A stretch of 64,000 nt of DNA from TPA_inf: Saccharomyces (taxonomy: Eukaryota): the NCBI GenBank assembly GCA_000146045.2, contig BK006947.3, positions 288,001 to 352,000 on the forward strand. The letters run 5' to 3'. Positions 1,068 through 62,671 of this stretch are shown in pieces. Under the pieces are notes generated by a model that made no database searches, was not told where the DNA came from, and worked only from the letters and a program-made list of their open reading frames with translations. A program made the position numbers and the translations under genes. Within the stretch, counting starts at the first letter, position 1, and every line of letters starts with the position of its first letter.

Positions 1068-1497
1068 AAACGGCAAACCCGTATTCGTGTATCACCCGGC
1101 CAGCTTTCTCCGATGAACGCGCACAAGTAAGAAGTTAAATTGCATCCCCCAGACACCACCTCTTTTGTTCACTTCTTGCCTCATGCCGTCAAAAAATTTT
1201 TTTCGCATCGAAAAAAATCCCCAAAAGAAAAGAAAAAAGTTCTTATTTTTATATAGTGCCACCATCGGGAAAAACTTCCCTGTAAAGCATTAACAGAGTC
1301 TTCCATCCCCGCTTCTGTCCTTTATTTGTTTCATAGAAGCTATTAAGCATCATATACTGCACACAGGAGCATGCATAGTGTCTGAAGCCTCTTTTGTTCT
1401 GTACTGCACATAATATTTCATAGAAAAACTAACGGAAAGAATCTACAACTCATAGTATCTGTAAATCCGTCCTATTGTCATATCACAATCACAGACT

Positions 1498-3876
1498 ATG
1501 ACCACTCAAGAATCGATCAAACCTTTGGTAGATAGAATCCTATCAAATCCCCTGCAGTTCAATGCTGCAATGATCTCTAACAAATCGAATAATAATGATA
1601 CTTCCGCCGCGCCGGAAAATAGCTCGTATATTGTGATAGGAAAACAGCATAATAACAATAGTAATAGCACAGCTATTGCTGCAACGGCCGAATCCAAGCA
1701 AATAAAAGAAAATAACTTGATAGACAGGCCAAACGGAAAGAAAACCAACACTGTTCCTAAATCTATGGCTGAAGCTTTATTGTTGTATACTTCTAAAAAT
1801 GATAAAGATGCTGCAGATGCTACTGGTGCCAAGAAGTCAGCGGAGCTTTCTACGGAGCTTTCTACGGAGCCTCCTTCCTCTTCTTCGGAAGATGACAAAG
1901 TAGGAAAAGAGGAAGAGGAAGAGGGTGAAATATTTCATGAGGCAAGAGACTATGTAGAACCCCGAAAAGCTAGTTTGAAGGAACGCGACAACGCAGATAA
2001 GGGCGATGGTGAAGACATCGGCGAAGACATCGGTGAAGACATCGGTGAAGACATCGGTGAAGACATTGGTGAAGACATTGGTGAAAACTTGGGTTCTCCA
2101 TTAGCAACCATTGATGATTCATCTAATGAGAATGAAAAGGAAAAAAGAAAGGAACTGTCTACAAGCATTAGCAGTGATGACGAAATAGAAGACGACGAGG
2201 ATGAGGATGACATGGATTATGATTCTAGTGCTATGGAAAAAGAGCTCCCTGAAGAAGAGGAGAACGATTCCAGCTCCAAAATTTCTGAAGGCGAAAAAAA
2301 GAGTTTATATCAAGATTTAATGGAAAATAGTACAGTGGAAGTAAATCGGTACGAACCAGTAAACAACACCAAAGAAAATGGAAACAGGAATCCAAAGGGA
2401 GAGGAGGAGGAAGAAGAGGAAGAAGAGCTGAAACATAAATCTAGGTCAATCACCCCTCCGGTTACAATATCAAATCTATCAAACTTTTACCAATTCAATG
2501 AAAATATCAATGATCGTGGTTCTTTAAACTCTACTAGAATTGTTAAAAATTGGGGCGACAAATTCACCAATTTGAAGCCTCGTGGCCTTTTGAATCATGG
2601 TGTTACTTGTTACACAAATGCTGCTGTACAGGCTATGTTACACATTCCTTCGATACAACATTATCTTTTTGATATACTAATGGGGAAATACGATAGCACC
2701 ATCTCAAAAAATTCCGTTTCCTATACTTTAGCTGAAACAAGTAAAAAAATGTGGTTACCGGTCTCAAAAAACCCTAGAAAGAACGTTTCAGCTTCCTACA
2801 TTAATCCAAAACATTTGATTTCCAGATTGGATGACATTAATTGTATGATGAGCGAATGGCAGCAGGAAGATTCACATGAGTACTTCATGTCTCTGATGTC
2901 AAGATTACAGGAAGATTCTGTTCCCAAGGGTCATAAACTTATAGAATCGATAATATATGACATATTCGGTGGTCTTTTAAAGCAGATCGTTACTTGCAAA
3001 TCTTGTGGCAGTATATCTAAAACAGAACAACCATTTTACGATTTATCGTTGCACTTGAAAGGGAAGAAAAAACTTGATCCAAATTCTGACCTGTCGAGTG
3101 ATAGCATTAACGGCACTTCAGCCACCACTTCTACCACTACCTCCAATGCTGCCACAAAACCATCTCTTTCATCCTCTTCATCTGTCAATTTAAACAATGG
3201 CTCACCATTTGCCGCTGCCAGTGATTTAAGTTCAGCCAACCGCAGATTTTCTATTGAAAAATCAATTAAAGATTTCTTCAATCCCGAATTAATCAAGGTT
3301 GACAAGGAGCAAAAGGGTTACGTTTGTGAGAAGTGTCACAAGACCACGAACGCCGTGAAGCATAGTTCAATATTAAGGGCTCCTGAAACTTTACTTGTGC
3401 ATCTGAAAAAATTCAGATTCAATGGCACGTCCTCATCAAAAATGAAGCAAGCTGTTTCTTATCCTATGTTTTTAGATTTGACGGAATATTGTGAGAGTAA
3501 AGAGCTACCTGTCAAATACCAACTATTAAGCGTGGTGGTTCATGAGGGCCGCTCCCTTTCTTCAGGTCACTACATTGCCCACTGCAAGCAACCAGACGGT
3601 AGCTGGGCCACTTACGACGACGAGTATATTAATATAATATCTGAAAGGGACGTTTTAAAGGAACCCAACGCATATTATCTCCTATACACGAGGCTAACTC
3701 CAAAATCGGTTCCATTGCCATTGGCGAAATCTGCCATGGCCACTGGTAATGTTACCTCTAAATCCAAACAGGAACAGGCTGTTAACGAACCAAATAACCG
3801 CCCATTGAAGATTAATAGCAAGAAAAATAACAGAAAAAAATGGAAAAAAAATAAAAAAAGGAAGTTCACCAAATGA
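1498..3876 (+). CDS. UBP10: Ubiquitin carboxyl-terminal hydrolase (USP family), 792 aa
   Basis: The translation has the Cys-box GLLNHGVTCYTNAAVQAM and the His-box SSGHYIAHCK...YDDEYI. The N-terminus is long, acidic and disordered with GEDI repeats. The 792-aa length and the position next to MRPL19 and NPR1 match UBP10/DOT4. Confidence 0.85.
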   Translation: MTTQESIKPLVDRILSNPLQFNAAMISNKSNNNDTSAAPENSSYIVIGKQHNNNSNSTAIAATAESKQIKENNLIDRPNGKKTNTVPKSMAEALLLYTSKNDKDAADATGAKKSAELSTELSTEPPSSSSEDDKVGKEEEEEGEIFHEARDYVEPRKASLKERDNADKGDGEDIGEDIGEDIGEDIGEDIGEDIGENLGSPLATIDDSSNENEKEKRKELSTSISSDDEIEDDEDEDDMDYDSSAMEKELPEEEENDSSSKISEGEKKSLYQDLMENSTVEVNRYEPVNNTKENGNRNPKGEEEEEEEEELKHKSRSITPPVTISNLSNFYQFNENINDRGSLNSTRIVKNWGDKFTNLKPRGLLNHGVTCYTNAAVQAMLHIPSIQHYLFDILMGKYDSTISKNSVSYTLAETSKKMWLPVSKNPRKNVSASYINPKHLISRLDDINCMMSEWQQEDSHEYFMSLMSRLQEDSVPKGHKLIESIIYDIFGGLLKQIVTCKSCGSISKTEQPFYDLSLHLKGKKKLDPNSDLSSDSINGTSATTSTTTSNAATKPSLSSSSSVNLNNGSPFAAASDLSSANRRFSIEKSIKDFFNPELIKVDKEQKGYVCEKCHKTTNAVKHSSILRAPETLLVHLKKFRFNGTSSSKMKQAVSYPMFLDLTEYCESKELPVKYQLLSVVVHEGRSLSSGHYIAHCKQPDGSWATYDDEYINIISERDVLKEPNAYYLLYTRLTPKSVPLPLAKSAMATGNVTSKSKQEQAVNEPNNRPLKINSKKNNRKKWKKNKKRKFTK
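2011..2082 (+). repeat. UBP10: In-frame 12-nt tandem repeat (GAAGACATCGGT/C) x6 encoding (GEDI)6 inside UBP10. A second 12-nt repeat x2.5 (ELST) lies at 1851..1881
   Basis: Read directly from the sequence: gaagacatcggc gaagacatcggt x3 gaagacattggt x2. Confidence 0.95.
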
Positions 3877-4098
3877 AAAAACTCGATATTCCTGGATTTT
3901 CCTCTTTTCATAGGCATTTTTATTAGCATTTCATTTTTATTATACCAAATCAATATATACATATAAATATCCGGTCTTTATTGACTTATAAAACAACTCT
4001 CAGTATACAGAGTTGGAGAAGCGTTTACTCAGAATAGCTTCAGTACTACCGAGCTTTGCTAACATAACGGGAGAAAGAGAATTTAAAACTTATATACA

Positions 4099-4107
4099 TA
4101 TTTACAG
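4099..4107 (-). promoter_or_regulatory. MRPL19: Puf3-binding element (CTGTAAATA on the mRNA strand) in the MRPL19 3' UTR, about 90 nt after the stop
   Basis: The plus strand reads TATTTACAG. Its reverse complement is CUGUAAAUA, the canonical Puf3 motif C[ACU]UGUA[ACU]AUA. Confidence 0.7.
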
Positions 4108-4192
4108 AATAGATCAGTAGAAAGAAGAAGGAAGGTCTGTTGAAAATTTCTCGAAATTGACGGTACTTTTTTGTCTTTTCACTACTTACAGA

Positions 4193-4669
4193 TCAAGGTA
4201 CAACCTTAATACCCATACTTTTTGCAACGCCAACTATTGATTTAACAATACCTTCCATCTCCAATAAACTATGCCTTTCATCACTCTTTTTTATCTTGGC
4301 TATTTCGTAAACGTGCTTCAGCGATAACTCTCCTAAAGCACGGGTTGGTCCCTTGGCAGGTGCACTGCCTAACATTGTCCCCACATTCGGTTGTCCATGT
4401 CCCTTGTCCATTTTAAGAGCTTTTAGCAGCAAATATCCGGTTGGTGGAGATTTCATTTCAAACGTAAATGTTCTATCAGGTTTTATTGTGATTAATACTG
4501 GAACCGGTACACCTGGCTGATAGTTTGCTGATCTTGCATTAAATTCCTTACAAAAGTCAATGGCTTTTATACCCTTGGAGCCCAATGCGGGCCCCACGGG
4601 AGGTGATGGTGCCGCTTGGCCTGCTCCTACTATTAGCTTTACTATCACGTTTTTTGCTGCCTGTGACAT
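4193..4669 (-). CDS. MRPL19: Mitochondrial ribosomal protein of the uL11 family, 158 aa
   Basis: The L11 signature [25 protein letters not shown] is present. The 158-aa length and synteny also fit. Confidence 0.85.
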
Positions 4670-5136
4670 TATGGAGACTAATAGTTCCTCTATGGTATTC
4701 GAGAGTTCGAAAGTACAACAAACAGAAATAAATACAGAAGGTTACGCTGTCGATTTGAATGTTCACGCTTTTTTTCCTTCTTATGAGTTGTAGATTTACT
4801 GCACTTTCTAAAGCTTCTTTGCTGTGAAATTTTAGAAAAGGGAATTGTCGCCTTGGTAAGACAATTAATGTTACCCGCTTCATTATTATTAATTAGTGGC
4901 GCGATATTTTAACGAACTTTTCCATTAATTATTATCATACTAAGCTTTTACATTTTTCTGATAAAATAGTAGATTATGAACAGGAGGTCAATCTATTTAG
5001 GCTTCTATAGAACGGTAAAATATGAAATTAGTTTAACAGAAGTAAATATGACATTGTATTTTAACATATACTCAAATAGGATAAAAAAAGGTTATATACA
5101 AATGCTTGGAAAAGAAATAAAAGTGGGGACGCTTAT

Positions 5137-7509
5137 TTATTGATTATTTTGCTTTTTCTTTTTCTTTTCTAGGCCTGCAATATGTGCTTCACTTTGATCC
5201 ACTTGTGTGTGATGATGGTCTTCTCCTCTAACCACTTTGAACGATAATCCATCTTCAACCAAGTGGCACATATCAATGCTACGGATCCAAGGATCTTCCA
5301 TGATTTCTTCGATATTTCCTCTGCATGCGGGCGCCAAATCAATCATACGTCCAACAATATGCTGAGTCTCTTCTGGTAATGAGTGCAACAATCTTTGTGG
5401 CCCGATATTAACATTATTAGGATCTGATACATTATTGGAAGAGCTTTCGGGTTTTTTCTTTTCTGTTGAGTGCGATTCATCGTAGGAAGGTGGATCAGGA
5501 GTTCTTGTAACCAAGCTACTTAAGGAGTCGCAATCACGTCCGGAACAAAATAGTTTGAATGAATTGTCCCTTAATTTCGGAATTTTCCATGGAAATTTCT
5601 TCAGTATCATACATGCAAAAATGATTGCAGAAGACCAAATATCTACGGGACGTGGGTCATACTTCGCAAATATACAGACTTCAGGTGCTAAATATGGATC
5701 ACTTCCAACAATTCCACTTGCTTCCACAAGATTTTTTGAGAATGGATATGAAAATACCACAGCAGCACCAAAATCGATTAATTTTACAATACCTTTTTCG
5801 TTTATAACACAATTATCTAGCTTTAGATCTCTATGAGCTAAGCCGATACTATGCAAATATTGTACACCAGTAAGTATTTGTTTGAAGCAACAACAAATCT
5901 CTTCATAGGACATTTTATTACTCATTACAATAGCAAATAAATCGTATTCACAATATTCCATAACTTGGAGAATTCTATCATTTTCATACACGATTTCAAT
6001 TGTTTCAATGATATTGGGATGATTCAAAGTTGTACCAATACAGTATTCTGATGTAATTTTCTTGACATAATCTCTTTTGGATTCATTTTCAAATTTAGTT
6101 CTAAACTCCTTCACTGCAAATATTTTGTTATCTGAAATTCTTTGAGCTAATTTGACAGAACCTCCTGCTCCAGCGCCTAAATCGGCACCGGTTTTGATGT
6201 ACCTTTTTGAGAACGGAATTCCTGAACCGCCGTGACTATGAGAATAAATAGTATCTCCATTTCCGTTATAACTAGTGGAATATGAGTTATTCCCTGCGGC
6301 AAAATGAGACGATGAATGAGAGTGTGACGGAACGGCAATTCCGCTAGAAAGAGGTGATCCGTTCGGGATCACGTTGTTACTATTCGAGGAAAGGTTACTG
6401 TTAGAACTTTTTTTGAAGAACCTCTTTAAATCACCGATGGAAGAATGTTGTGACCTTGGAACACTTTGACTTGGAGGTAAGTGGTCATGTACAGATGAGG
6501 GGGAACCGTAAAAGTTATCAGTATAGGAACCAGTTGGCTGTCTTGATGCAGAATATATGCTGCTTTGTCTTGCGCGGATAGGCTTCGGGATAGGCGTCGA
6601 ACCATTGGTAACATTGGGATTCTTAATGTTTGGAGAAGGACCATTGGAATTGGCAGAAAAAGACATGCCTGCAGAGTTAGAATTTGAAGATTCTTTTGAG
6701 TTTTTGGAAAAGAAAAAATTCCCAAGCTGTGAAGAGAATGAACCTGAACGGGATATAGATCTTGATTGAGTGGCATTTGCATTATTACTATCCATCGATG
6801 CTTTTTGGAGTTTTTGTTTGGAGATAACAAAACGTGGTTCCACGCTATCTACTTTTGGGGAGGATATAACATTTGAATCGATTGCAGAAATATTATTGGG
6901 CATACCGCCTGCATATGTTTCGAGCCACGAAGAAGACAAAGAGGAGCTGTTGCTATTCGAGCTATTGTTATCTTTGTTAGAATTTGGCACGGAGTAAGGT
7001 ATACTTGATGATAAAGAAGGAATGGCCCTTCCTGAAGTATGTGACGTGGTAGATAATCTACTTGTGATTCTGTTCTGTGCAGCAAAAGAACCACCATGTG
7101 AGGAAAGTCCTGCAGTACCTTGATCGTTTATTAAGGATCCAAATCTATCTCTACTTTGTGCACTTGTGCCGTAGAATGATGCAGTGTGAGCAAAGTTTGC
7201 ATTAAGGAAGCTGGAGGAAAACTGATTCCTATCGTCGAGAGAGGAACCGGCTGTTGATGATGAATCTTCCTCTGAGTATATTTGAGTAACAGTTGTGACA
7301 CTGCCAGGAACTGGCACGTTAGCCCTATTACGATCACTACTGCTGCTATTACTCACGCTACCAATATGACTACTACTCTTATTCCTAGAGTGAAGGTCAA
7401 GCGATTGTGACTCGGGCGTCGTGGTCAACGTATCAGCAGAAGTTCTCGGTGATGAGTTCGAAGTTTCATTTTTTCGTTTTTCCTGTAGCAATCGAGTTAA
7501 TGAAGACAT
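5137..7509 (-). CDS. NPR1: Ser/Thr protein kinase with a long S/N-rich N-terminal region, 790 aa
   Basis: The kinase motifs GAGAGGSV, HRDLKLDNCV, DFGAA and GSDPYLAPE are visible. The 790-aa length fits NPR1. Confidence 0.85.
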   Translation of the reverse strand: MSSLTRLLQEKRKNETSNSSPRTSADTLTTTPESQSLDLHSRNKSSSHIGSVSNSSSSDRNRANVPVPGSVTTVTQIYSEEDSSSTAGSSLDDRNQFSSSFLNANFAHTASFYGTSAQSRDRFGSLINDQGTAGLSSHGGSFAAQNRITSRLSTTSHTSGRAIPSLSSSIPYSVPNSNKDNNSSNSNSSSLSSSWLETYAGGMPNNISAIDSNVISSPKVDSVEPRFVISKQKLQKASMDSNNANATQSRSISRSGSFSSQLGNFFFSKNSKESSNSNSAGMSFSANSNGPSPNIKNPNVTNGSTPIPKPIRARQSSIYSASRQPTGSYTDNFYGSPSSVHDHLPPSQSVPRSQHSSIGDLKRFFKKSSNSNLSSNSNNVIPNGSPLSSGIAVPSHSHSSSHFAAGNNSYSTSYNGNGDTIYSHSHGGSGIPFSKRYIKTGADLGAGAGGSVKLAQRISDNKIFAVKEFRTKFENESKRDYVKKITSEYCIGTTLNHPNIIETIEIVYENDRILQVMEYCEYDLFAIVMSNKMSYEEICCCFKQILTGVQYLHSIGLAHRDLKLDNCVINEKGIVKLIDFGAAVVFSYPFSKNLVEASGIVGSDPYLAPEVCIFAKYDPRPVDIWSSAIIFACMILKKFPWKIPKLRDNSFKLFCSGRDCDSLSSLVTRTPDPPSYDESHSTEKKKPESSSNNVSDPNNVNIGPQRLLHSLPEETQHIVGRMIDLAPACRGNIEEIMEDPWIRSIDMCHLVEDGLSFKVVRGEDHHHTQVDQSEAHIAGLEKKKKKQNNQ

Positions 7510-12968: not shown

Positions 12969-14679
12969 GGAGAAACATGATTGCCAGTACTCGCAAGAAC
13001 TAAGATAGAGAGAAAAAGGACGATATATCAAGAAATAAAAGGGAAGGTAATTCAAGTAAGCACTGCTTAGCTGTCTGCATAGGAGCCTTCTGCAATTACT
13101 CATCTCATCGTATTCGTCATAACCCGTTACGTAACTGATTTGACCAAGAAGCGTAATGAAAATTTTGAGCGGACGCCGAAACGTTGTTTTTTTTTTGCTT
13201 TAGTCCAGATAATAACCTTTTATAATTTTCTTTTTAGGGAGGAAGACCGGTCTAAGCTCTTAGAGGTTCTCGCATACCCAAGTAAAAGCTAAGACCGAAG
13301 CAAACACGCAGGATAATTTTCCGGTTTACTCTCACTGCAGCTTTAGTATAGATGCAGATCTGGTATTGAGAGAGGGGGGCCGGAACGAAAAGATTCAGGG
13401 GAGAGAAAGGCCCGGGCGTCGGGGAACAAAACCACTTTTGCACACCTTAATTTTTTAGCTACTCTGTTTCTCCGGGCTTGTATGGCACATAAATAAAATT
13501 CTGCTACTTTCCATTATCTGGTCATCACTTACCGATGTGGAGAGCCTTGCCCTTGAAAAATAAGATAAGACCTCCGATTAGGGTATTTGAAATTAACCGC
13601 TGTAGAATGAAATAAGGACGCTTGTTTGACATTTTTTAGTTGCTTTCTCTATCTACCACCATTTGCATCTTGATTTATGTCTTGTTTGAGGAGATTTCGG
13701 ATAAATATTCTTCGAGGGGAAAATGTCGTAAAAATAAAAACAATAAAGAAACAAAACGATTAAAAGAAAAACTCAACCATCCTCAAAAGTCCTCCTCTTT
13801 TTTTTCACGTGCTGCGCTGATGTAAGCAGCAGGACATGGCAGGAAGAAAATCGGAGAATTGTGGCCGCGACACCTGACAAACAATCCTCAGGCAAATGTA
13901 AAATTGTACATGAAAGGCTGCGTAGTCAATGTCTTAGAAGGCCGGCCCGCATGATCCAGAAGCAGACCATAAAAAAAATAAAAATTCGCGGTCTGGCAGC
14001 AGGCATAAGATGCATAGCGTTATCCTAAATGACATCACGATGATAAATCCTCCGCCGCATGATGCTTTTGATTTGCCTAAGGGCCTGCCATCGTGCTGGC
14101 TCAAACTATTGAGGGTCAACATACCTTGAAAATCCAAGTAAAAGGATGGATATCGTTATACTAAAAGCAACACAGAAAAGGTCCACGTCAGTTCCACACA
14201 ATAACATTTACGTAGTGTTCACGCGAAGCAGTTACATCTCAACTAACATAATTGCTGGTGAGCCTACAACACTGCATGCGTAAACGTCAACGGGATTACG
14301 TTAGTATTTTTGGCCGCCGGTAAATTCTCTTGTTTTTTTTTCTTGATTTCACTTCTTTTCATGTTCCTTTGGAATAATCTAATTCCTCATGATTAAATGA
14401 GACTGTTTTTTGTTTCCGTAACATCCATACCTTTCCTGTATAATATTCTTGCTGTAAAGTTTGTTTTTTTTATGAAAAAAACATTTTCTTTTCTTGAGAT
14501 GAGGCGCCGCGAGCCTTTCTCCCATGGGCAGTGGTAAATTTTCCAAATCAATGCAGCTCTTTGAAATACAACAGCATTTTTCATACATTTTAAGCAATTT
14601 CTAGTTTGTAGATATTGTTAGATTAGTTTTTGAACATTGTTTTGATAACTGAAAATAAAACAGCAAACAAACTACAAAA

Positions 14680-15402
14680 ATGGTCGCTTTAATCTCTAAG
14701 AAAAGAAAGCTAGTCGCTGACGGTGTCTTCTACGCTGAATTGAACGAATTCTTCACCAGAGAATTAGCTGAAGAAGGTTACTCCGGTGTTGAAGTCCGTG
14801 TCACTCCAACCAAGACCGAAGTTATCATCAGAGCTACCAGAACTCAAGATGTTTTGGGTGAAAACGGTAGAAGAATCAACGAATTAACTTTGTTGGTTCA
14901 AAAGAGATTCAAGTACGCTCCAGGTACTATTGTCTTATATGCTGAAAGAGTTCAAGACCGTGGTTTGTCCGCTGTCGCTCAAGCTGAATCTATGAAATTC
15001 AAATTGTTGAACGGTTTGGCTATCAGAAGAGCTGCTTACGGTGTCGTCAGATACGTTATGGAATCTGGTGCTAAGGGTTGTGAAGTTGTTGTTTCCGGTA
15101 AACTAAGAGCTGCCAGAGCTAAGGCTATGAAATTTGCTGACGGTTTCTTGATTCACTCTGGTCAACCAGTCAACGACTTCATTGACACTGCTACTAGACA
15201 CGTCTTGATGAGACAAGGTGTTTTGGGTATCAAGGTTAAGATTATGAGAGACCCAGCTAAGAGCAGAACTGGTCCAAAGGCTTTGCCAGATGCTGTCACC
15301 ATCATTGAACCAAAAGAAGAAGAACCAATTCTTGCTCCATCTGTCAAGGACTACAGACCAGCTGAAGAAACTGAAGCTCAAGCTGAACCAGTTGAAGCTT
15401 AG
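14680..15402 (+). CDS. RPS3: Ribosomal protein uS3 (40S), 240 aa, intronless
   Basis: A KH domain and the conserved uS3 C-terminal domain are present. The codon bias is strong, the start context is A-rich (acaaaaATGG), and the length is 240 aa. Confidence 0.9.
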
Positions 15403-38740: not shown

Positions 38741-41700
38741 TTAATTCTTTTTCAAAGTACGTTGTTTTTCGGCATTTTCGACAACTTTTTCTTCAATGAA
38801 TAGACCTTTCCTTCTTCTGATGGCATTCATATGCTTACGGGCAATATTCTCTCTATCTGCTGTATCACCTAGTTCCTCCAATTCTTCTTCTGTGGTTGGG
38901 ACCCAAAATGGATCTAAATCGATACACTCGAATCCGGAAAATACCAATTGAGGTTGTGCTGCACCAGATGTTCGTTTACGAATATCTTCACTTAAACCGA
39001 ATGCTTCCACAACGGGCACATGTGCCTCAATTTGAAAAAACGGTGTACCTTCTTTCATTTCTTCAGAAATGATTTTACCATGCCTCTGTAGAATAACGGC
39101 ATACACTTTTCCAAGTACATCGACAGAGGTTTGAATATCACATGAGTAAATTGCCCACATAATTCTTGGGGACCAGTCTAAAAAGGCCTCATGTATAGCG
39201 TCCCTTGTAGAAGTTATCAACCTCCCTGATAAGTCCACAATATGTTGTTGGTAGCGCGGATCTTCAATAGATTCAATTTCGTCTTGTGACATCTTATGTA
39301 CGCTTTCAACAAGAACACACATTCCCTGTACGGGCTCATTTGCCAGAGGTCCTTCGCTAACAGCCAGTTGGAAGCCATTTTTGATGGAATCTGAATACTC
39401 AAAGGCTGCTGGAGTACCTTCAAATAGGCTTCCAAGAAGATTATCCTGCGACAGCAAAATGTTGCACCCAACTCTACTTGGCCCAAAACCTGCTAACTTT
39501 ACTTTAAACCCACTTAATAGTTCTCTGCTCTTCTCCTCCTGATTTATGACCTCTTCAAAAGCAACGAGTAAAGACTTTTTGTCTAGAAAAGAACTTCCAG
39601 TTGATTCTATGACGGGATCCATGCTTGAAGTGGACGTCTTCAAAATGTTTTTAATGCTATTTTGATGTTGAGATAAAAAGTCTGTAACTTTACCGCTTAA
39701 TGGGAACGTTCTGAATGTAATCTTGTACTGGCTCAATAGTAGTTCATGAACACCCCTTCCCAGCTGTGAATTCTGCGGTGGATTCATATCTGAGGCTGAT
39801 AAAAATGTTTCCCTATATGGAATAGCCGGTTCAGAATGTGTAATTTCTATTCCTGCAAATCTCTCTGTTAAATCTTTTAGGCATCTTTCTAAATGTAATT
39901 CACCGGCCGTACACAGAATGTGTTCACCAGTATTTTCAACGTATGTGTGCACGCAAGGATCTGCTTGATCCAACAACTTTAATCCTCGTACCAACTTGCT
40001 CATTTCCACAGGATTGGCTGGCTCCACAGCAACACGAACGATTGGCGTAAAATGGAAATTGACGCCCGCTAGATTGACGCCTTGTACGCCCTTCTCTATC
40101 AACGTACCACTCTTTAAAACTTTACCGGCCAGACCACGAATACCGACTATATTTCCTGATGGACAAACGTCCAAAGGAACCAATTCCTTACCCATAAACA
40201 AATATAAATGCGTAATAATCGCAGTTTCAATATGCTCCTCTGGACATTTTGGATCATATTTTGGACCCAATACCGAAATCTCCTGACCAACTCTTAGTGT
40301 GCCACTGTATATTCTTGCAAATGCTACCAAGCATTCTTCCTTTTCGTCAAAAATATCATCTACTTCATCGTTCACATCCTCTGAAATTTGCTTAATACTC
40401 TCCAAAAGTGGATCTTCTTCCTCATATTCAAACATTGAACTTAGAGGGTCATTTGGATCTATGTCAGTTGGTACAAAATCTAGGCCGAAGTTATCTTGAC
40501 TATCTGAATCATCCTCCCCCTCATATTCAAATTCTAAATCCAAGGCGGAAGAAGGCTCTGAAACAACACAGAAAACATCATTATTTCTTGAAGGTTTTGG
40601 CTTTGTCTGTTCTCCTACTTCGGGGGTCATAACGGTATCTTTTGCTCTTTTATATAAATCTGATGTATTTTTAGAATTGTCATTCAAATCCATCATTGCC
40701 ATATTTTCTACCATACCAGCATGTTTTGCAGCATTAAGTGCTTCCTCACGTGCCTTTCTACTTCTCTCCATCAGCTCATCCGAAGATGCTATCCTCTTAG
40801 ATTCAACAGGTAATTCTTCTCTAGGAATTGAAAGCATCTTAGATACGTATGCACTAACTGGTCCTTCTTTATCACATGTCTTCATGGCTTTCAGAAGTCT
40901 TGGATCCATGGCTGCTGTGTCGGATTCGGAGACCAAAATAGTGTTCAAACGATCGGTTTGTGATTCCAAAGGTGAAGGTAATTTTTCAATAACTGTTAAC
41001 AATACTGCTGTGCTGACGGGTAGCCATTGACCCATGATAGTTCTTAACAATTGTTTATCGTCCTTCGACCTTAGATCACGTGCAAGTAGCTTAATATTTA
41101 AAGTTTTTGCTATTTTTTCGACCATTTCAGAATCTCTCGATGTGATTATGTTTTGATAAATTTTCCATATATTTTCGAGGATTAGCGATGTGAAAAGGGG
41201 TTTCAGGGATCTTCCCTTAAGGCCTTTATTGTTAATAATTTTTTTTGTCTTGGGATCCATATAGAAATCACCCCATAAAACTTTCTGTAGGTTTTCCCTT
41301 TTAGCGCCTAATTTTTGTTCGTAAAATTTGGCCAATTGACCGATGTTGAAACCCCAACCATCAATTGCGGAAGCAAAAATAACGTTGTTATCAGTAGGGT
41401 TAAAGTAAATACCCGAATCATCCTTTTCAATATATTCCGCGTTTTCGTTCTTTTCTAATTGCTCCCTCCAAAATAAATCATCCAATTGTCTCTCGTTTGC
41501 GAAAAAGGACCCGATAACTGAGTTGACTTGTTCAATGACTTTGGACAAGTGAATATAAGCTTCTTGGGGAGTTAGTTGTAGTTCTGTGATCAATCTATCA
41601 ATCTTATTCAATACTAAAATGGGCTTCAGCTTCTCCGTCCAACATTGTCTCAACACTGTGACGGTTTGCGAGCATACCCCCTCTACGACATCAACCAGTA

Positions 41701-42073
41701 CGACAGCACCATCACATAGTCTTGAAGCTGCACTGACCTCACTTGAAAAATCAATGTGACCTGGGGAATCAATTAAGTTTACTAGATGCTCGCTTACAAG
41801 AGGCTCATCGGAACCTTCTTGTTTACGCAATACCCTAAAATATAAAGAGATAGCCGATGATTCCATTGTGATACCACGTAGTTGTTCGTCAGGCCTGGCA
41901 TCTAAGAATCGAATTTTGCCGGCAAGCCTTTGTGATATAATACCATTCGAAGCCAAAAGAGAATCTGAAAGTGAAGTTTTACCGTGATCAACATGAGCAA
42001 CAATACATATATTTCTTATACAGGAAGGGTCATTTTGCAGACGTTTGTAAGTCTCCGATTCCACTCTAGGCAT
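38741..42073 (-). CDS. RIA1: EF-2-like cytoplasmic GTPase for 60S maturation (Tif6 release), 1110 aa
   Basis: The G1 motif AHVDHGKT and G3 motif DSPGHIDF are present, with an eEF2-like domain layout and an acidic insertion. Length is 1110 aa, and the promoter carries a PAC element. Confidence 0.9.
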   Translation of the reverse strand: MPRVESETYKRLQNDPSCIRNICIVAHVDHGKTSLSDSLLASNGIISQRLAGKIRFLDARPDEQLRGITMESSAISLYFRVLRKQEGSDEPLVSEHLVNLIDSPGHIDFSSEVSAASRLCDGAVVLVDVVEGVCSQTVTVLRQCWTEKLKPILVLNKIDRLITELQLTPQEAYIHLSKVIEQVNSVIGSFFANERQLDDLFWREQLEKNENAEYIEKDDSGIYFNPTDNNVIFASAIDGWGFNIGQLAKFYEQKLGAKRENLQKVLWGDFYMDPKTKKIINNKGLKGRSLKPLFTSLILENIWKIYQNIITSRDSEMVEKIAKTLNIKLLARDLRSKDDKQLLRTIMGQWLPVSTAVLLTVIEKLPSPLESQTDRLNTILVSESDTAAMDPRLLKAMKTCDKEGPVSAYVSKMLSIPREELPVESKRIASSDELMERSRKAREEALNAAKHAGMVENMAMMDLNDNSKNTSDLYKRAKDTVMTPEVGEQTKPKPSRNNDVFCVVSEPSSALDLEFEYEGEDDSDSQDNFGLDFVPTDIDPNDPLSSMFEYEEEDPLLESIKQISEDVNDEVDDIFDEKEECLVAFARIYSGTLRVGQEISVLGPKYDPKCPEEHIETAIITHLYLFMGKELVPLDVCPSGNIVGIRGLAGKVLKSGTLIEKGVQGVNLAGVNFHFTPIVRVAVEPANPVEMSKLVRGLKLLDQADPCVHTYVENTGEHILCTAGELHLERCLKDLTERFAGIEITHSEPAIPYRETFLSASDMNPPQNSQLGRGVHELLLSQYKITFRTFPLSGKVTDFLSQHQNSIKNILKTSTSSMDPVIESTGSSFLDKKSLLVAFEEVINQEEKSRELLSGFKVKLAGFGPSRVGCNILLSQDNLLGSLFEGTPAAFEYSDSIKNGFQLAVSEGPLANEPVQGMCVLVESVHKMSQDEIESIEDPRYQQHIVDLSGRLITSTRDAIHEAFLDWSPRIMWAIYSCDIQTSVDVLGKVYAVILQRHGKIISEEMKEGTPFFQIEAHVPVVEAFGLSEDIRKRTSGAAQPQLVFSGFECIDLDPFWVPTTEEELEELGDTADRENIARKHMNAIRRRKGLFIEEKVVENAEKQRTLKKN

Positions 42074-42328: not shown

Positions 42329-42547
42329 ATGTCTGATAAGCCCGACTCCCAAGTATTTTGTCCAAATTGCAATGAAAGACTTCAAAAGTGTTTAGTACAG
42401 CAAAATTATGCCATTATAATATGTCCCAGCTTAGTCTGCGGCTACCCATTCAATCAAAGAGAAGTACTCGAAAATCTAACGTATGTAGACGATAATGACG
42501 TCTTAAAAGTTGCAAAAAAAAGATTATCTTCACGAAGCAAACCATAA
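42329..42547 (+). CDS. Small Cys-rich protein of unknown function (YNL162W-A), 72 aa
   Basis: The ORF has C11-x2-C14 and C32-x4-C37, with one further Cys between them. It lies in the divergent RIA1 promoter region. Confidence 0.6.
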   Translation: MSDKPDSQVFCPNCNERLQKCLVQQNYAIIICPSLVCGYPFNQREVLENLTYVDDNDVLKVAKKRLSSRSKP

Positions 42548-42949
42548 AATAGTTGCACTATTGCTGTTCATTATCTTTCATTATCCCTAGTAACGCCATT
42601 GCAGAGTCAAATATGAGCGATAACAATATAAAGAGCAATAACATGATAGTTGAAATTAACATAAAAGAAGCGACATAATTAAAGGTCTCAAAGAGTGAAG
42701 ATCAAGTATCCGGTTTTTACGAATAATCTACTTTCTATGTGAAACCCAAAAAAGTTCGTACAAGGAAAACTAAAAAGTGTGTAATAACTTGTCTAGCTTT
42801 GGCATTAAAACTTGTCAATTATTCATCACCAATATAGACTAATGCGTTTTGGAACGCCAAACCGCAGTGACAAATAGCAAATATGTAGCTGTCATATCGG
42901 CATATAATAACAGTTTTCTACCAAATGCTGTCCTACATTCAGAGATCTT

Positions 42950-42962
42950 ACATCCTTACATC
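42950..42962. promoter_or_regulatory. RPL42A: Rap1-like site candidate (ACATCCTTACATC vs ACACCCRYACAYM) about 370 bp upstream of RPL42A
   Basis: Two mismatches to the consensus. The position is typical for a ribosomal-protein gene promoter. This is a weak call. Confidence 0.3.
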
Positions 42963-43320
42963 TAAAGTAAAACCTAGACATTTACTTCGAGTTATACTTT
43001 TTTTTTATTTATCTATTTTTTCTCTTGCGGACATTTAACACCTGAATTCCGCCTAACGCCAGGACTGATCCTGCCAGGGAAGGGAGCTTTGTCTAGTGCC
43101 AATAGGCCGGACCAGTAGGAAGGTTACAGCAGCTGGCCCGCAGAGTGATTGGGTCACAGGAAATAGCGCAACCTTCTCTTTTGCCCGGGAAAGGCGGTTC
43201 AATCTACCTTCGAAGGGCTAGTACATGAGCGCGAAGGAGGCAGATAATAGCACCATTAAGTGGTCCAAATGCATCTTGAAATCTAATCCTTAATAGAGGA
43301 AAACAACAATTATCAGTAAA

Positions 43321-44154
43321 AATGGGTATGTTATAACCATAATTCCTAATGGTGAATAAAATCAGGACCAATAAAGAAAAGCTAATTTGATTTTTATTGT
43401 CAATGAAATTTCATAATCGTCATGAATGCATAAACAGACACACCTAGCAACTGTATAATCTGCGCCTAAAAAGGGCGTATACACAAAACTAAACGATGCG
43501 CAATAAAAGTTCAGCAGTCAGCAATGAAACCGAGATATGCAGCAACAGAGTATCATATGCATGGAGGATCCTTTCTGTTTTTCTGATAATATGCTCTGAA
43601 AAAGCTCCAAACAGCACAGTAGCCTATTTGTGAAGCTCAAAAAAGGCTTCTATTTCCCTCGCTATCTTCAGATTGTGCAGTGATATTCTTTGAGGAAGGA
43701 AACGTAGAGGGGATAAGTTGGATAACTGTTATTTCTTTTCAATATGCTAGATTTTGCTTACCACCTTACTGATTTTTTCTAATAATAAACTTTTTTACTA
43801 ACATTAGTACGATGTCTCATCTATTTCTTCTATTTAGTTAACGTTCCAAAGACCAGAAAGACCTACTGTAAGGGTAAGACCTGTCGTAAGCACACTCAAC
43901 ACAAGGTTACTCAATACAAAGCTGGTAAGGCTTCCTTGTTTGCCCAAGGTAAGAGACGTTATGACCGTAAACAATCTGGTTTCGGTGGTCAAACCAAGCC
44001 TGTTTTCCACAAGAAAGCTAAGACTACCAAGAAGGTTGTTTTGAGATTGGAATGTGTCAAATGTAAGACCAGAGCCCAATTGACCTTGAAGAGATGCAAG
44101 CACTTCGAATTGGGTGGTGAAAAGAAGCAAAAGGGTCAAGCTTTGCAATTCTGA
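43321..44154 (+). CDS. RPL42A: Ribosomal protein eL42 (L44e), 106 aa, spliced: exon 1 = 43321..43324 (ATG G), exon 2 = 43838..44154
   Basis: ATGG is followed directly by GTATGT at 43325. The branchpoint TACTAAC is at about 43796-43802, with the 3' ss TAG at 43835-43837. The joined frame encodes [15 protein letters not shown]...KGQALQF. Confidence 0.9.
43325..43837 (+). other. RPL42A: Spliceosomal intron of RPL42A (513 nt)
   Basis: GTATGT 5' ss, TACTAAC branchpoint and TAG 3' ss are all present. Confidence 0.85.
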
Positions 44155-61756: not shown

Positions 61757-61906
61757 CTCTTTCAATTACTCGGCAGTTTTTCTCTTCATAACATCTTTTC
61801 CTCATACAAACCGCCGAGTGCACATAAATACAACTACAAATAATAATATGTTGACATCGGATGGAGATCACTAACTAAACCGCCACCGCGCTAATTCTGC
61901 ACAAAT

Positions 61907-62671
61907 TCAAATTTCATCATCGCTCTCCACGTCATCATGGACGTCTTCCACCTCGGCGGATTCTTCGTCTTTTGATAGAATTTCCACAGCCCGCGGACGC
62001 ACAAACGATCCGTGACCCGGCGCCACAGGCCCAAACAGTGTTACCCCATTTATGCGCCCATCGTTTTTGCCTGCGGCTTCCGGGAATTCCACACCGCACC
62101 ATGTGCCCATCACGTCCAACGGTAGTGGTCCTACGTACCGTAAAATGGCCTCACGTGGAGCGCTCCCGTCTACTGTGACACGACAGTGGCGGCCGATAGC
62201 CGCCGTTAATTGCTCTCGGGCATATGCTTCGTCCTGCTTTGCCAGCGCAGCGCGCTGGCTCTGCTGTGCAGCATTAAACCTACCATAGCCGTGAGCCATC
62301 TTCCATCGTAATACGGATTGATCCCTTCGCAAATAATCCTCCTCGCTAATTACTTCCATTGAGGGGATTCCTTCCGCTTGCGTGGCCAGCTGGTTAGAGA
62401 TTGATTGGGCATTAGAGTCTGTAACAACCACAATAAGCTCCTCCTCTCCTTTTAGGAAGTTGGCATCTTCATCCTCATTTGAATAGGCACCCCCCTTTTT
62501 AGTACTATATATCTCCTTGTTGTCGTACTGTCTTTTCACAACTATTTCCATATCCTCTGGTTCCACTCCGGTAACATGGTACAATCGGTCCTTGAACTGC
62601 CTTAATTTAAGCGAATTTGGTAATTCCTTTTCTGTACGGACCAATTCACTCTCTATGACAACTCTAACCAT
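61907..62671 (-). CDS. ALF1: Tubulin-folding cofactor B with CAP-Gly domain, 254 aa
   Basis: An N-terminal ubiquitin-like domain is followed by the C-terminal CAP-Gly motif GKNDGRINGVTLFG. Length is 254 aa. Confidence 0.85.
   Translation of the reverse strand: MVRVVIESELVRTEKELPNSLKLRQFKDRLYHVTGVEPEDMEIVVKRQYDNKEIYSTKKGGAYSNEDEDANFLKGEEELIVVVTDSNAQSISNQLATQAEGIPSMEVISEEDYLRRDQSVLRWKMAHGYGRFNAAQQSQRAALAKQDEAYAREQLTAAIGRHCRVTVDGSAPREAILRYVGPLPLDVMGTWCGVEFPEAAGKNDGRINGVTLFGPVAPGHGSFVRPRAVEILSKDEESAEVEDVHDDVESDDEI

Follow-up and report, generated by a model that had tools for sequence, protein, structure and literature searches.

What does a GC-rich stretch of about 200 bp do in the intergenic DNA upstream of a ribosomal-protein gene in an otherwise AT-rich yeast genome? 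The question is raised by a 64-kb stretch of Saccharomyces cerevisiae chromosome XIV, the whole of which is called the window below and in which all positions are counted from the first letter. The initial annotation of this DNA placed the island just upstream of RPL42A and offered two explanations: a GC-rich segment of the kind that many ribosomal-protein gene promoters have between Rap1 sites and core promoter, or an unannotated small structured non-coding RNA. Only the former has held up: the RPL42A promoter very probably belongs to the Hmo1-enriched (category I) ribosomal-protein class, with the island as its G+C-rich intervening region, and this explanation is backed by the position of the island, by a conservation that concerns composition only, by IFHL-type motifs and by published ChIP-exo occupancy of Hmo1, Fhl1 and Ifh1. 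The genes around the island are the following.

38741-42073, minus strand: RIA1/EFL1, 100% identical to clustered Ria1p sequences from S. cerevisiae
42329-42547, plus strand: YNL162W-A
ATG at 43323, plus strand: RPL42A, with exon 1 (ATGG), an intron at 43327-43837 and exon 2 at 43838-44154

The spliced RPL42A product has 106 amino acids and was matched on many S. cerevisiae chromosome XIV contigs. As YNL162W-A and RPL42A are the immediate neighbours, the island falls in the 775-bp intergenic region between them, and the interval first assigned to it, 43031-43250, corresponds to -292 to -73 relative to the RPL42A ATG.

Size and composition of the island

The GC content of 43031-43250 is 0.532, and the maximum-scoring GC segment, 43049-43243 (~195 bp), reaches 0.569, while the flanks have a GC content of 31-34% (0.327 for 42731-43030 on the left and 0.340 for 43251-43550 on the right). 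The estimate originally made by eye, about 200 bp at 55-60% against about 35%, was therefore close to the computed values. Non-coding 150-bp windows across the 64 kb have a mean GC of 0.363 with a standard deviation of 0.058, and the island reaches 0.58. The windowed computation that had been proposed as a check thus finds in the island the top non-coding GC peak of the 64 kb, the runners-up being 0.533 and 0.507; only 0.3% of the non-coding windows have a GC of at least 0.55 and every one of these comes from the island. Sequence with a GC content above that of the island is found within the 64 kb in coding DNA only. The highest GC of the whole window is located at 61871-62404 (up to 0.615 per 200 bp), which is coding and not intergenic and lies inside a 254-residue ORF on the minus strand (61907-62671) whose product begins MVRVVIESEL. 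Going by its position on chromosome XIV, this ORF is probably ALF1.

The placement of the island between a Rap1-like site and the RPL42A start was also correct, as a Rap1-type sequence, ACATCCTTACATC, is located at 42950-42962 and the ATG at 43323. The "several" CCCGGG palindromes, on the other hand, come down to a single copy at 43184-43189, and a search for repeats and palindromes found the S. cerevisiae island otherwise unremarkable.

Hmo1-enriched ribosomal-protein promoters

Hmo1-enriched ribosomal-protein promoters have been described as a class, with a broad G+C-rich segment that bears IFHL motifs (Reja 2015). The segment was named intervening region (IVR) by Kasahara 2011 (PMC3105432), who reported a GC content of 48.6% for the IVRs of Hmo1-enriched genes versus 36.1% for those of Hmo1-limited genes, the enriched IVRs being about twice as long. 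According to the same study several Hmo1 molecules bind per IVR and Hmo1 masks the IVR, leading the PIC to the core promoter; an upstream shift of PIC and TSS into the IVR in hmo1-delta was reported for RPS5 and RPL27B only. Downstream of Rap1, Fhl1 and Ifh1 are found at a distance of about 100 bp and Hmo1 at about 150 bp, with multiple degenerate G-rich Hmo1 motifs (Knight 2014; PMC4117944). Moreover, a "~70-bp A/T-rich gap" separates Rap1 from Fhl1, and Hmo1-enriched genes tend towards two Rap1 sites (Reja 2015). The IFHL site itself was given as TCTAGGCAGAG, and the affinity of Hmo1 is twofold higher for an IFHL site (Malinina 2024; PMC11430298).

RPL42A is contained in these published data. 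Table S2 of Reja 2015 lists it with two Rap1 sites, an Hmo1 occupancy of 33086 (78.8th percentile of ribosomal-protein genes), Fhl1 at the 94.9th, Ifh1 at the 91.2th and Sfp1 at the 81.0th percentile, and two TATA mismatches, the ChIP-exo occupancies being summed over -400 to 0 from the TSS and hence not resolved to the island. The paralogue RPL42B has a similar Hmo1 occupancy of 33640, and RPS3 has one of 374 (Reja 2015). The published genome-wide data thus show strong occupancy of the RPL42A promoter by Hmo1, Fhl1, Ifh1 and Sfp1. RPL42A was also classified as an Hmo1-associated promoter with Rap1-dependent extended open chromatin (Ganapathi 2011; PMC3064788). Literature searches on YNL162W-A and the RPL42A promoter yielded no report of a transcript or element at the island beyond Ganapathi 2011, and RPL42A does not appear in the study of Wu et al., which deals with divergent transcription at Rap1 promoters. 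Since the promoter class has been described and the gene appears in published tables, the island counts as already known, and it is an ordinary member of its class.

Anatomy of the RPL42A promoter

From 5' to 3' the promoter contains the following features.

42950-42962, plus strand: Rap1 site 1, UAS of RPL42A, ACATCCTTACATC, one mismatch to ACAYCCRTACAYY, kept in 7/7 Saccharomyces species
42970-42982, plus strand: Rap1 site 2, AAACCTAGACATT, degenerate in S. cerevisiae, located by alignment and by a scan of the orthologous promoters
42984-43045, plus strand: A/T-rich gap that separates the island from the Rap1 sites and includes a poly(dT) tract at about 42998-43024; GC of the 50-bp bin at -350 is 0.20-0.22
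43048-43056, plus strand: IFHL-type motif TCCGCCTAA, marking the island's upstream edge, to be compared with the IFHL site TCTAGGCAGAG and its reverse complement CTCTGCCTAGA
43049-43243, no strand assigned: G+C-rich island, maximum-scoring GC segment, IVR of RPL42A and putative Hmo1/FIS platform
plus-strand starts 43105, 43193 and 43239, minus-strand spans 43049-43053 and 43071-43075: the five GGCNG copies of the island
43196-43204, plus strand: "B-box-like" string GGTTCAATC, not a functional B-box
43211-43228, plus strand: highly conserved 18-bp block CGAAGGGCTAGTACATGA at the 3' edge of the island, nearly invariant in seven species
43233-43250, plus strand: conserved GAAGGAGGCAGATAATAG, kept in seven species, containing the candidate TATA-like GATAATAG
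43243-43250, plus strand: candidate TATA-like element GATAATAG, two mismatches to TATAWAWR
43298-43326, plus strand: 5' leader and exon 1 of RPL42A, near-invariant, column identity 0.96

This layout has the traits of the Hmo1-enriched class. Tandem Rap1 sites are present and both are conserved, the second being nearer to the consensus in sister species (AGACCCATACATT in S. mikatae and S. kudriavzevii), and Table S2 of Reja 2015 likewise counts two. The expected A/T-rich poly(dA:dT) gap of about 70 bp is found at 42984-43045, and the broad G+C-rich IVR, here 195 bp at 57% GC, begins about 95 bp downstream of Rap1 site 1. An A/T-rich core promoter follows GAAGGAGGCAGATAATAG and leads into the leader, which extends up to the ATG. 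Relatives of GAAGGAGGCAGATAATAG occur as GGAGATA(C/G)AT in RPL42B and as GGATATAC and TAGATATAC in Naumovozyma castellii and Zygosaccharomyces rouxii. Judged by its sequence, GATAATAG may serve as TATA-like core element, and its mismatch count of two agrees with the TATA_mismatches value of 2 for RPL42A in Table S2 of Reja 2015.

RPS3, which is also contained in the window (ATG 14680, ORF 14680-15402, promoter 14080-14680), serves as internal control. It has one Rap1 site (14422-14433) and a single GC-rich 50-bp bin but no broad island, which matches its Hmo1-limited status (occupancy 374).

Conservation of composition rather than sequence

Is it the sequence of the island that has been maintained, or only its composition? 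Orthologous loci were compared from S. paradoxus, S. mikatae, S. kudriavzevii, S. arboricola, S. eubayanus and S. uvarum, giving seven species together with S. cerevisiae. In 50-bp bins, GC is 0.46-0.70 between -300 and -150 in 7/7 Saccharomyces species and 0.20-0.48 in the bins farther upstream. The maximum-scoring RPL42A islands of the seven species are 176-219 bp long, have a GC content of 0.55-0.62 and start 75-100 bp past the Rap1 sites. The mean pairwise column identity of the island core (43031-43190) is 0.39, the lowest value in the intergenic region, compared with 0.45-0.49 in intergenic DNA farther upstream that looks neutral, 0.59 at the two Rap1 sites, 0.68 in 43191-43250 and 0.96 in the leader, and indels occur throughout the alignment of the island. 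Within S. cerevisiae, a comparison of eleven sequences shows the island to vary, by SNPs and a 1-bp indel, as densely as its flanks.

The paralogue RPL42B was reached via its neighbour CHS7 in S. cerevisiae and S. uvarum. In both species it has tandem Rap1 sites at about -380 and -362, an A-rich gap and an island of 159-180 bp with a GC content of 0.60-0.62, and no similarity between the RPL42A and RPL42B islands was detected by BLASTN. Moreover, in Z. rouxii, which represents the pre-duplication state, RPL42 has an island of 269 bp (GC 0.59) with canonical IFHL sites including TCTAGGCAGAG, as well as a copy of TTCCGCCTAAC identical to that in S. cerevisiae. The islands of RPL42A, RPL42B and Z. 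rouxii RPL42 all start 75-100 bp after the Rap1 sites. From these comparative data it follows that the island is old and has been preserved in position, length and composition but not in sequence. The trio of RPL42A, RPL42B and Z. rouxii RPL42 may be a clean natural case of selection acting on promoter GC composition with no sequence conservation over more than 100 My.

In Z. rouxii, RPL42, CHS7 and RIA1 are adjacent (1275-7273 of locus L022), and in S. cerevisiae RPL42A lies beside RIA1 and RPL42B beside CHS7. This is what one expects of a pre-duplication arrangement that was divided between the two paralogous regions.

No comparable island was found in the RPL42 promoters of N. castellii and of a Saccharomycetaceae metagenome contig, both of which have kept the Rap1 sites; in N. 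castellii the distance from Rap1 to the ATG is only about 210 bp. RPL42 as such can therefore be expressed without this architecture, which was lost, or never gained, in some post-duplication lineages. An origin of the island from a mobile element or foreign DNA was considered as well and is ruled out by the synteny in all Saccharomyces species and in the paralogue. The possibility of a small ORF was likewise discarded: ORFs that span the island open only with TTG or GTG (in a listing made with the bacterial code), and there are indels of lengths that are not multiples of three between species and the 1-bp indel within S. cerevisiae.

Motifs inside and beside the island

The five GGCNG copies of the S. 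cerevisiae island compare with 2.8 expected from dinucleotide shuffles, an excess that lacks significance (P = 0.15). In the eight islands taken together, GGCNG is found 33 times versus 22.6 expected (P = 0.02) and YGCCTAR 10 times versus 1.5 expected (P < 0.001); in both tests related species were treated as independent, so that the pooled P values overstate independence.

The block CGAAGGGCTAGTACATGA is near-invariant in Saccharomyces although the island upstream of it varies, and it was not found in the RPL42B promoter. Within it, AGGGCTA presumably resembles IFHL/Tbf1-type motifs of other yeasts. That CGAAGGGCTAGTACATGA is a distinct, RPL42A-specific cis-element determining where the Hmo1-covered region ends and the zone of PIC assembly begins is an idea that we consider rather unlikely.

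Two observations in other species concern the motifs of this region. In the island of S. kudriavzevii ZP591 two 24-nt arms form a perfect inverted repeat around a 6-nt spacer, GCTCGCCTAGGACCTGCCTGTAAG / CTTACAGGCAGGTCCTAGGCGAGC (2420-2473 of locus L016), and each arm carries IFHL-type CGCCTAG and CTGCCTG. The repeat is missing in the other six species and appears to be a palindromic duplication of Hmo1/IFHL motifs confined to this lineage. Furthermore, S. paradoxus and S. arboricola have an Fhl1-type core GACGCA (CGACGCAWT) immediately before the island (compare 43010-43030 of the window). S. cerevisiae has TTATCTATT where GACGCA aligns, yet the published Fhl1 occupancy at RPL42A is at the 94.9th percentile.

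A platform for Hmo1 or for a nucleosome?

How might such a promoter work? The two tandem Rap1 sites (42950-42982) would open the promoter. Beyond the poly(dT)-containing A/T-rich gap of about 60 bp that comes next, the GC stretch of about 195 bp at 43049-43243 would be occupied by Fhl1-Ifh1-Sfp1 at its upstream end and by several copies of Hmo1, an HMG-box protein. The coat of Hmo1 over the island would exclude the PIC and restrict its assembly to the A/T-rich core with the TATA-like GATAATAG; in other words, it is proposed that the PIC is kept from assembling within the GC stretch because Hmo1 covers it. Such a masking role of Hmo1 at the RPL42A promoter is suggested by analogy to RPS5 and RPL27B. 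Selection would act in this case on base composition and on scattered short motifs of the GGCNG type, and not on a fixed sequence or an RNA fold.

Alternatively, the GC island could be mainly nucleosome-favouring, positioning a "fragile" MNase-sensitive nucleosome or providing a substrate for RSC, and the role of Hmo1 would be secondary. MNase-labile particles of nucleosome size do coincide with Hmo1 at category I promoters, and nucleosomes prefer these regions in vitro (Knight 2014). In addition, chromatin of the RPL42A promoter was found to be unchanged in hmo1-delta and altered in rap1-ts (Ganapathi 2011), data that indicate that Hmo1 does not create the open region at RPL42A. A conservation of composition only would also fit a constraint on a physical property. 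Against this stand the high Hmo1 occupancy at RPL42A and the frequency of YGCCTAR and GGCNG, which across the islands lies above the expectation from composition and argues for more than bulk GC. Moreover, a nucleosome at this place is compatible with the Hmo1 model and would be a variant of the same known promoter class, inseparable from it here. As the main function of the island we regard nucleosome positioning as improbable.

A structured RNA or a Pol III element?

Could either strand of the island instead encode a small structured non-coding RNA that has escaped annotation? In AT-rich genomes a high GC content is a classic pointer to genes of structured RNAs, and the 220-nt stretch folds in RNAfold to -67.2 kcal/mol on the plus strand and to -68.6 kcal/mol on the minus strand. 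However, dinucleotide shuffles average -67.25 and -64.72 kcal/mol, respectively (z = 0.01 and -0.90), and no sliding 100-nt sub-window on either strand falls below z = -1.9. The folding check proposed in the initial annotation thus left the island at the level of shuffled sequence on both strands, and the covariation check across the Saccharomyces alignment revealed no conserved structure. RNAalifold predicted for the seven species 10 pairs with an energy of -2.61 kcal/mol, and the SCI was 0.036 (plus) and 0.019 (minus) versus 0.013-0.016 in column shuffles, the maxima of which reached 0.10-0.12. Base pairs of the S. cerevisiae MFE structures are standard in the other species for 35-57% on the plus strand and 37-71% on the minus strand, compared with 22-49% in controls with a slid 3' partner. 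In the count of pairs, which includes the source sequence, 62.8% of the cells are paired, and the covariation score is 0.171, a value that the control slid by -3 matches (0.166). In addition, conservation within the intergenic region is lowest in the island core, where many indels are tolerated.

Searches with Rfam 15 covered the whole window at gathering threshold and 42700-43900 at E <= 10. The former search gave no match at all, and the latter gave none that falls in the island. The sub-threshold matches within 42700-43900 are to C/D-box families, lie in the flanking AT-rich DNA and the intron only and were judged to be chance. An example is a match to the plant C/D-box snoR72 in the RPL42A intron (43343-43426; 21.4 bits versus a gathering threshold of 43, E = 3.7), also judged to be chance. 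With no excess stability, no conserved structure and no Rfam match, an RNA gene at the island is very unlikely.

Even less credence, hardly any in fact, is given to the idea that the island is a degenerate Pol III element signalled by GGTTCAATC, be it the remnant of a tRNA gene or an extra-TFIIIC (ETC) site: the pentamer GGTTC is indeed common to GGTTCAATC and the B-box, and GGTTCRAY is found in 5/7 species, but GGTTCAATCTA is more than two mismatches away from the B-box consensus GGTTCGANTCC, matches to the B-box with up to two mismatches occur in the window at chance level (28 observed versus 34 expected from shuffles), GGTTCAATC is deleted in S. eubayanus and S. uvarum, an A-box-like partner is absent, and neither ARAGORN nor the Rfam tRNA models find a tRNA in the whole window. 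The statement that a B-box-like string is present that does not fold as a tRNA was in this way right about the tRNA and wrong about the likeness to a B-box. Given the negative results of folding, alignment, Rfam, tRNA and B-box searches, both the RNA and the Pol III readings are rejected, as far as can be judged from sequence. What the analysis does find at the RPL42A island is the layout of the promoter, a conservation of composition only and a lack of RNA structure.

Implications

The correct label for the island is promoter architecture, that is the Hmo1/FIS-bound IVR of a category I gene, and not candidate non-coding RNA. Beyond correct annotation this matters little. The comparison illustrates a promoter class that is constrained by base composition and short degenerate motifs, and screens for RNA genes in yeasts that use local GC excess should mask such regions.

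Comparison with known systems

The likeness to Pol III B-box and ETC sites is limited to the pentamer GGTTC; unlike such sites the string in the island fails the consensus, is not conserved and has no tRNA-like fold. With the GC-rich non-coding RNA genes of AT-rich yeast genomes, such as snoRNAs and candidates of the RUF type, the island shares the local excess of GC in intergenic DNA. It differs from them in lacking excess stability, conserved structure, covariation and an Rfam match, and in having the lowest conservation in the intergenic region.

With respect to the IFHL motif (TCTGCCTAG / GGCNG), RPL42A shares TCCGCCTAA and its five GGCNG copies, and Z. rouxii shares TTCCGCCTAAC and the canonical TCTAGGCAGAG. 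The individual positions of the IFHL sites in RPL42A islands are not conserved between species, and the Fhl1-type GACGCA that S. paradoxus and S. arboricola have upstream is not present in S. cerevisiae.

The closest likeness is to the IVRs of Hmo1-enriched or category I promoters, such as the RPS5-IVR and RPL27B-IVR (Kasahara 2011) and RPS11A (Knight 2014), which have the same Rap1 pair, A/T gap and broad GC stretch that bears IFHL-type motifs and extends to the core promoter. The long distance from Rap1 to the core (~290 bp) and the high published occupancy by Hmo1, Fhl1 and Ifh1 are shared with this class as well. The MNase pattern at RPL42A is unchanged in hmo1-delta, and RPL42A shows no difference in kind from the category I class; with a GC content of 53-57% its island lies at or above the mean of 48.6% of the Hmo1-enriched promoters.
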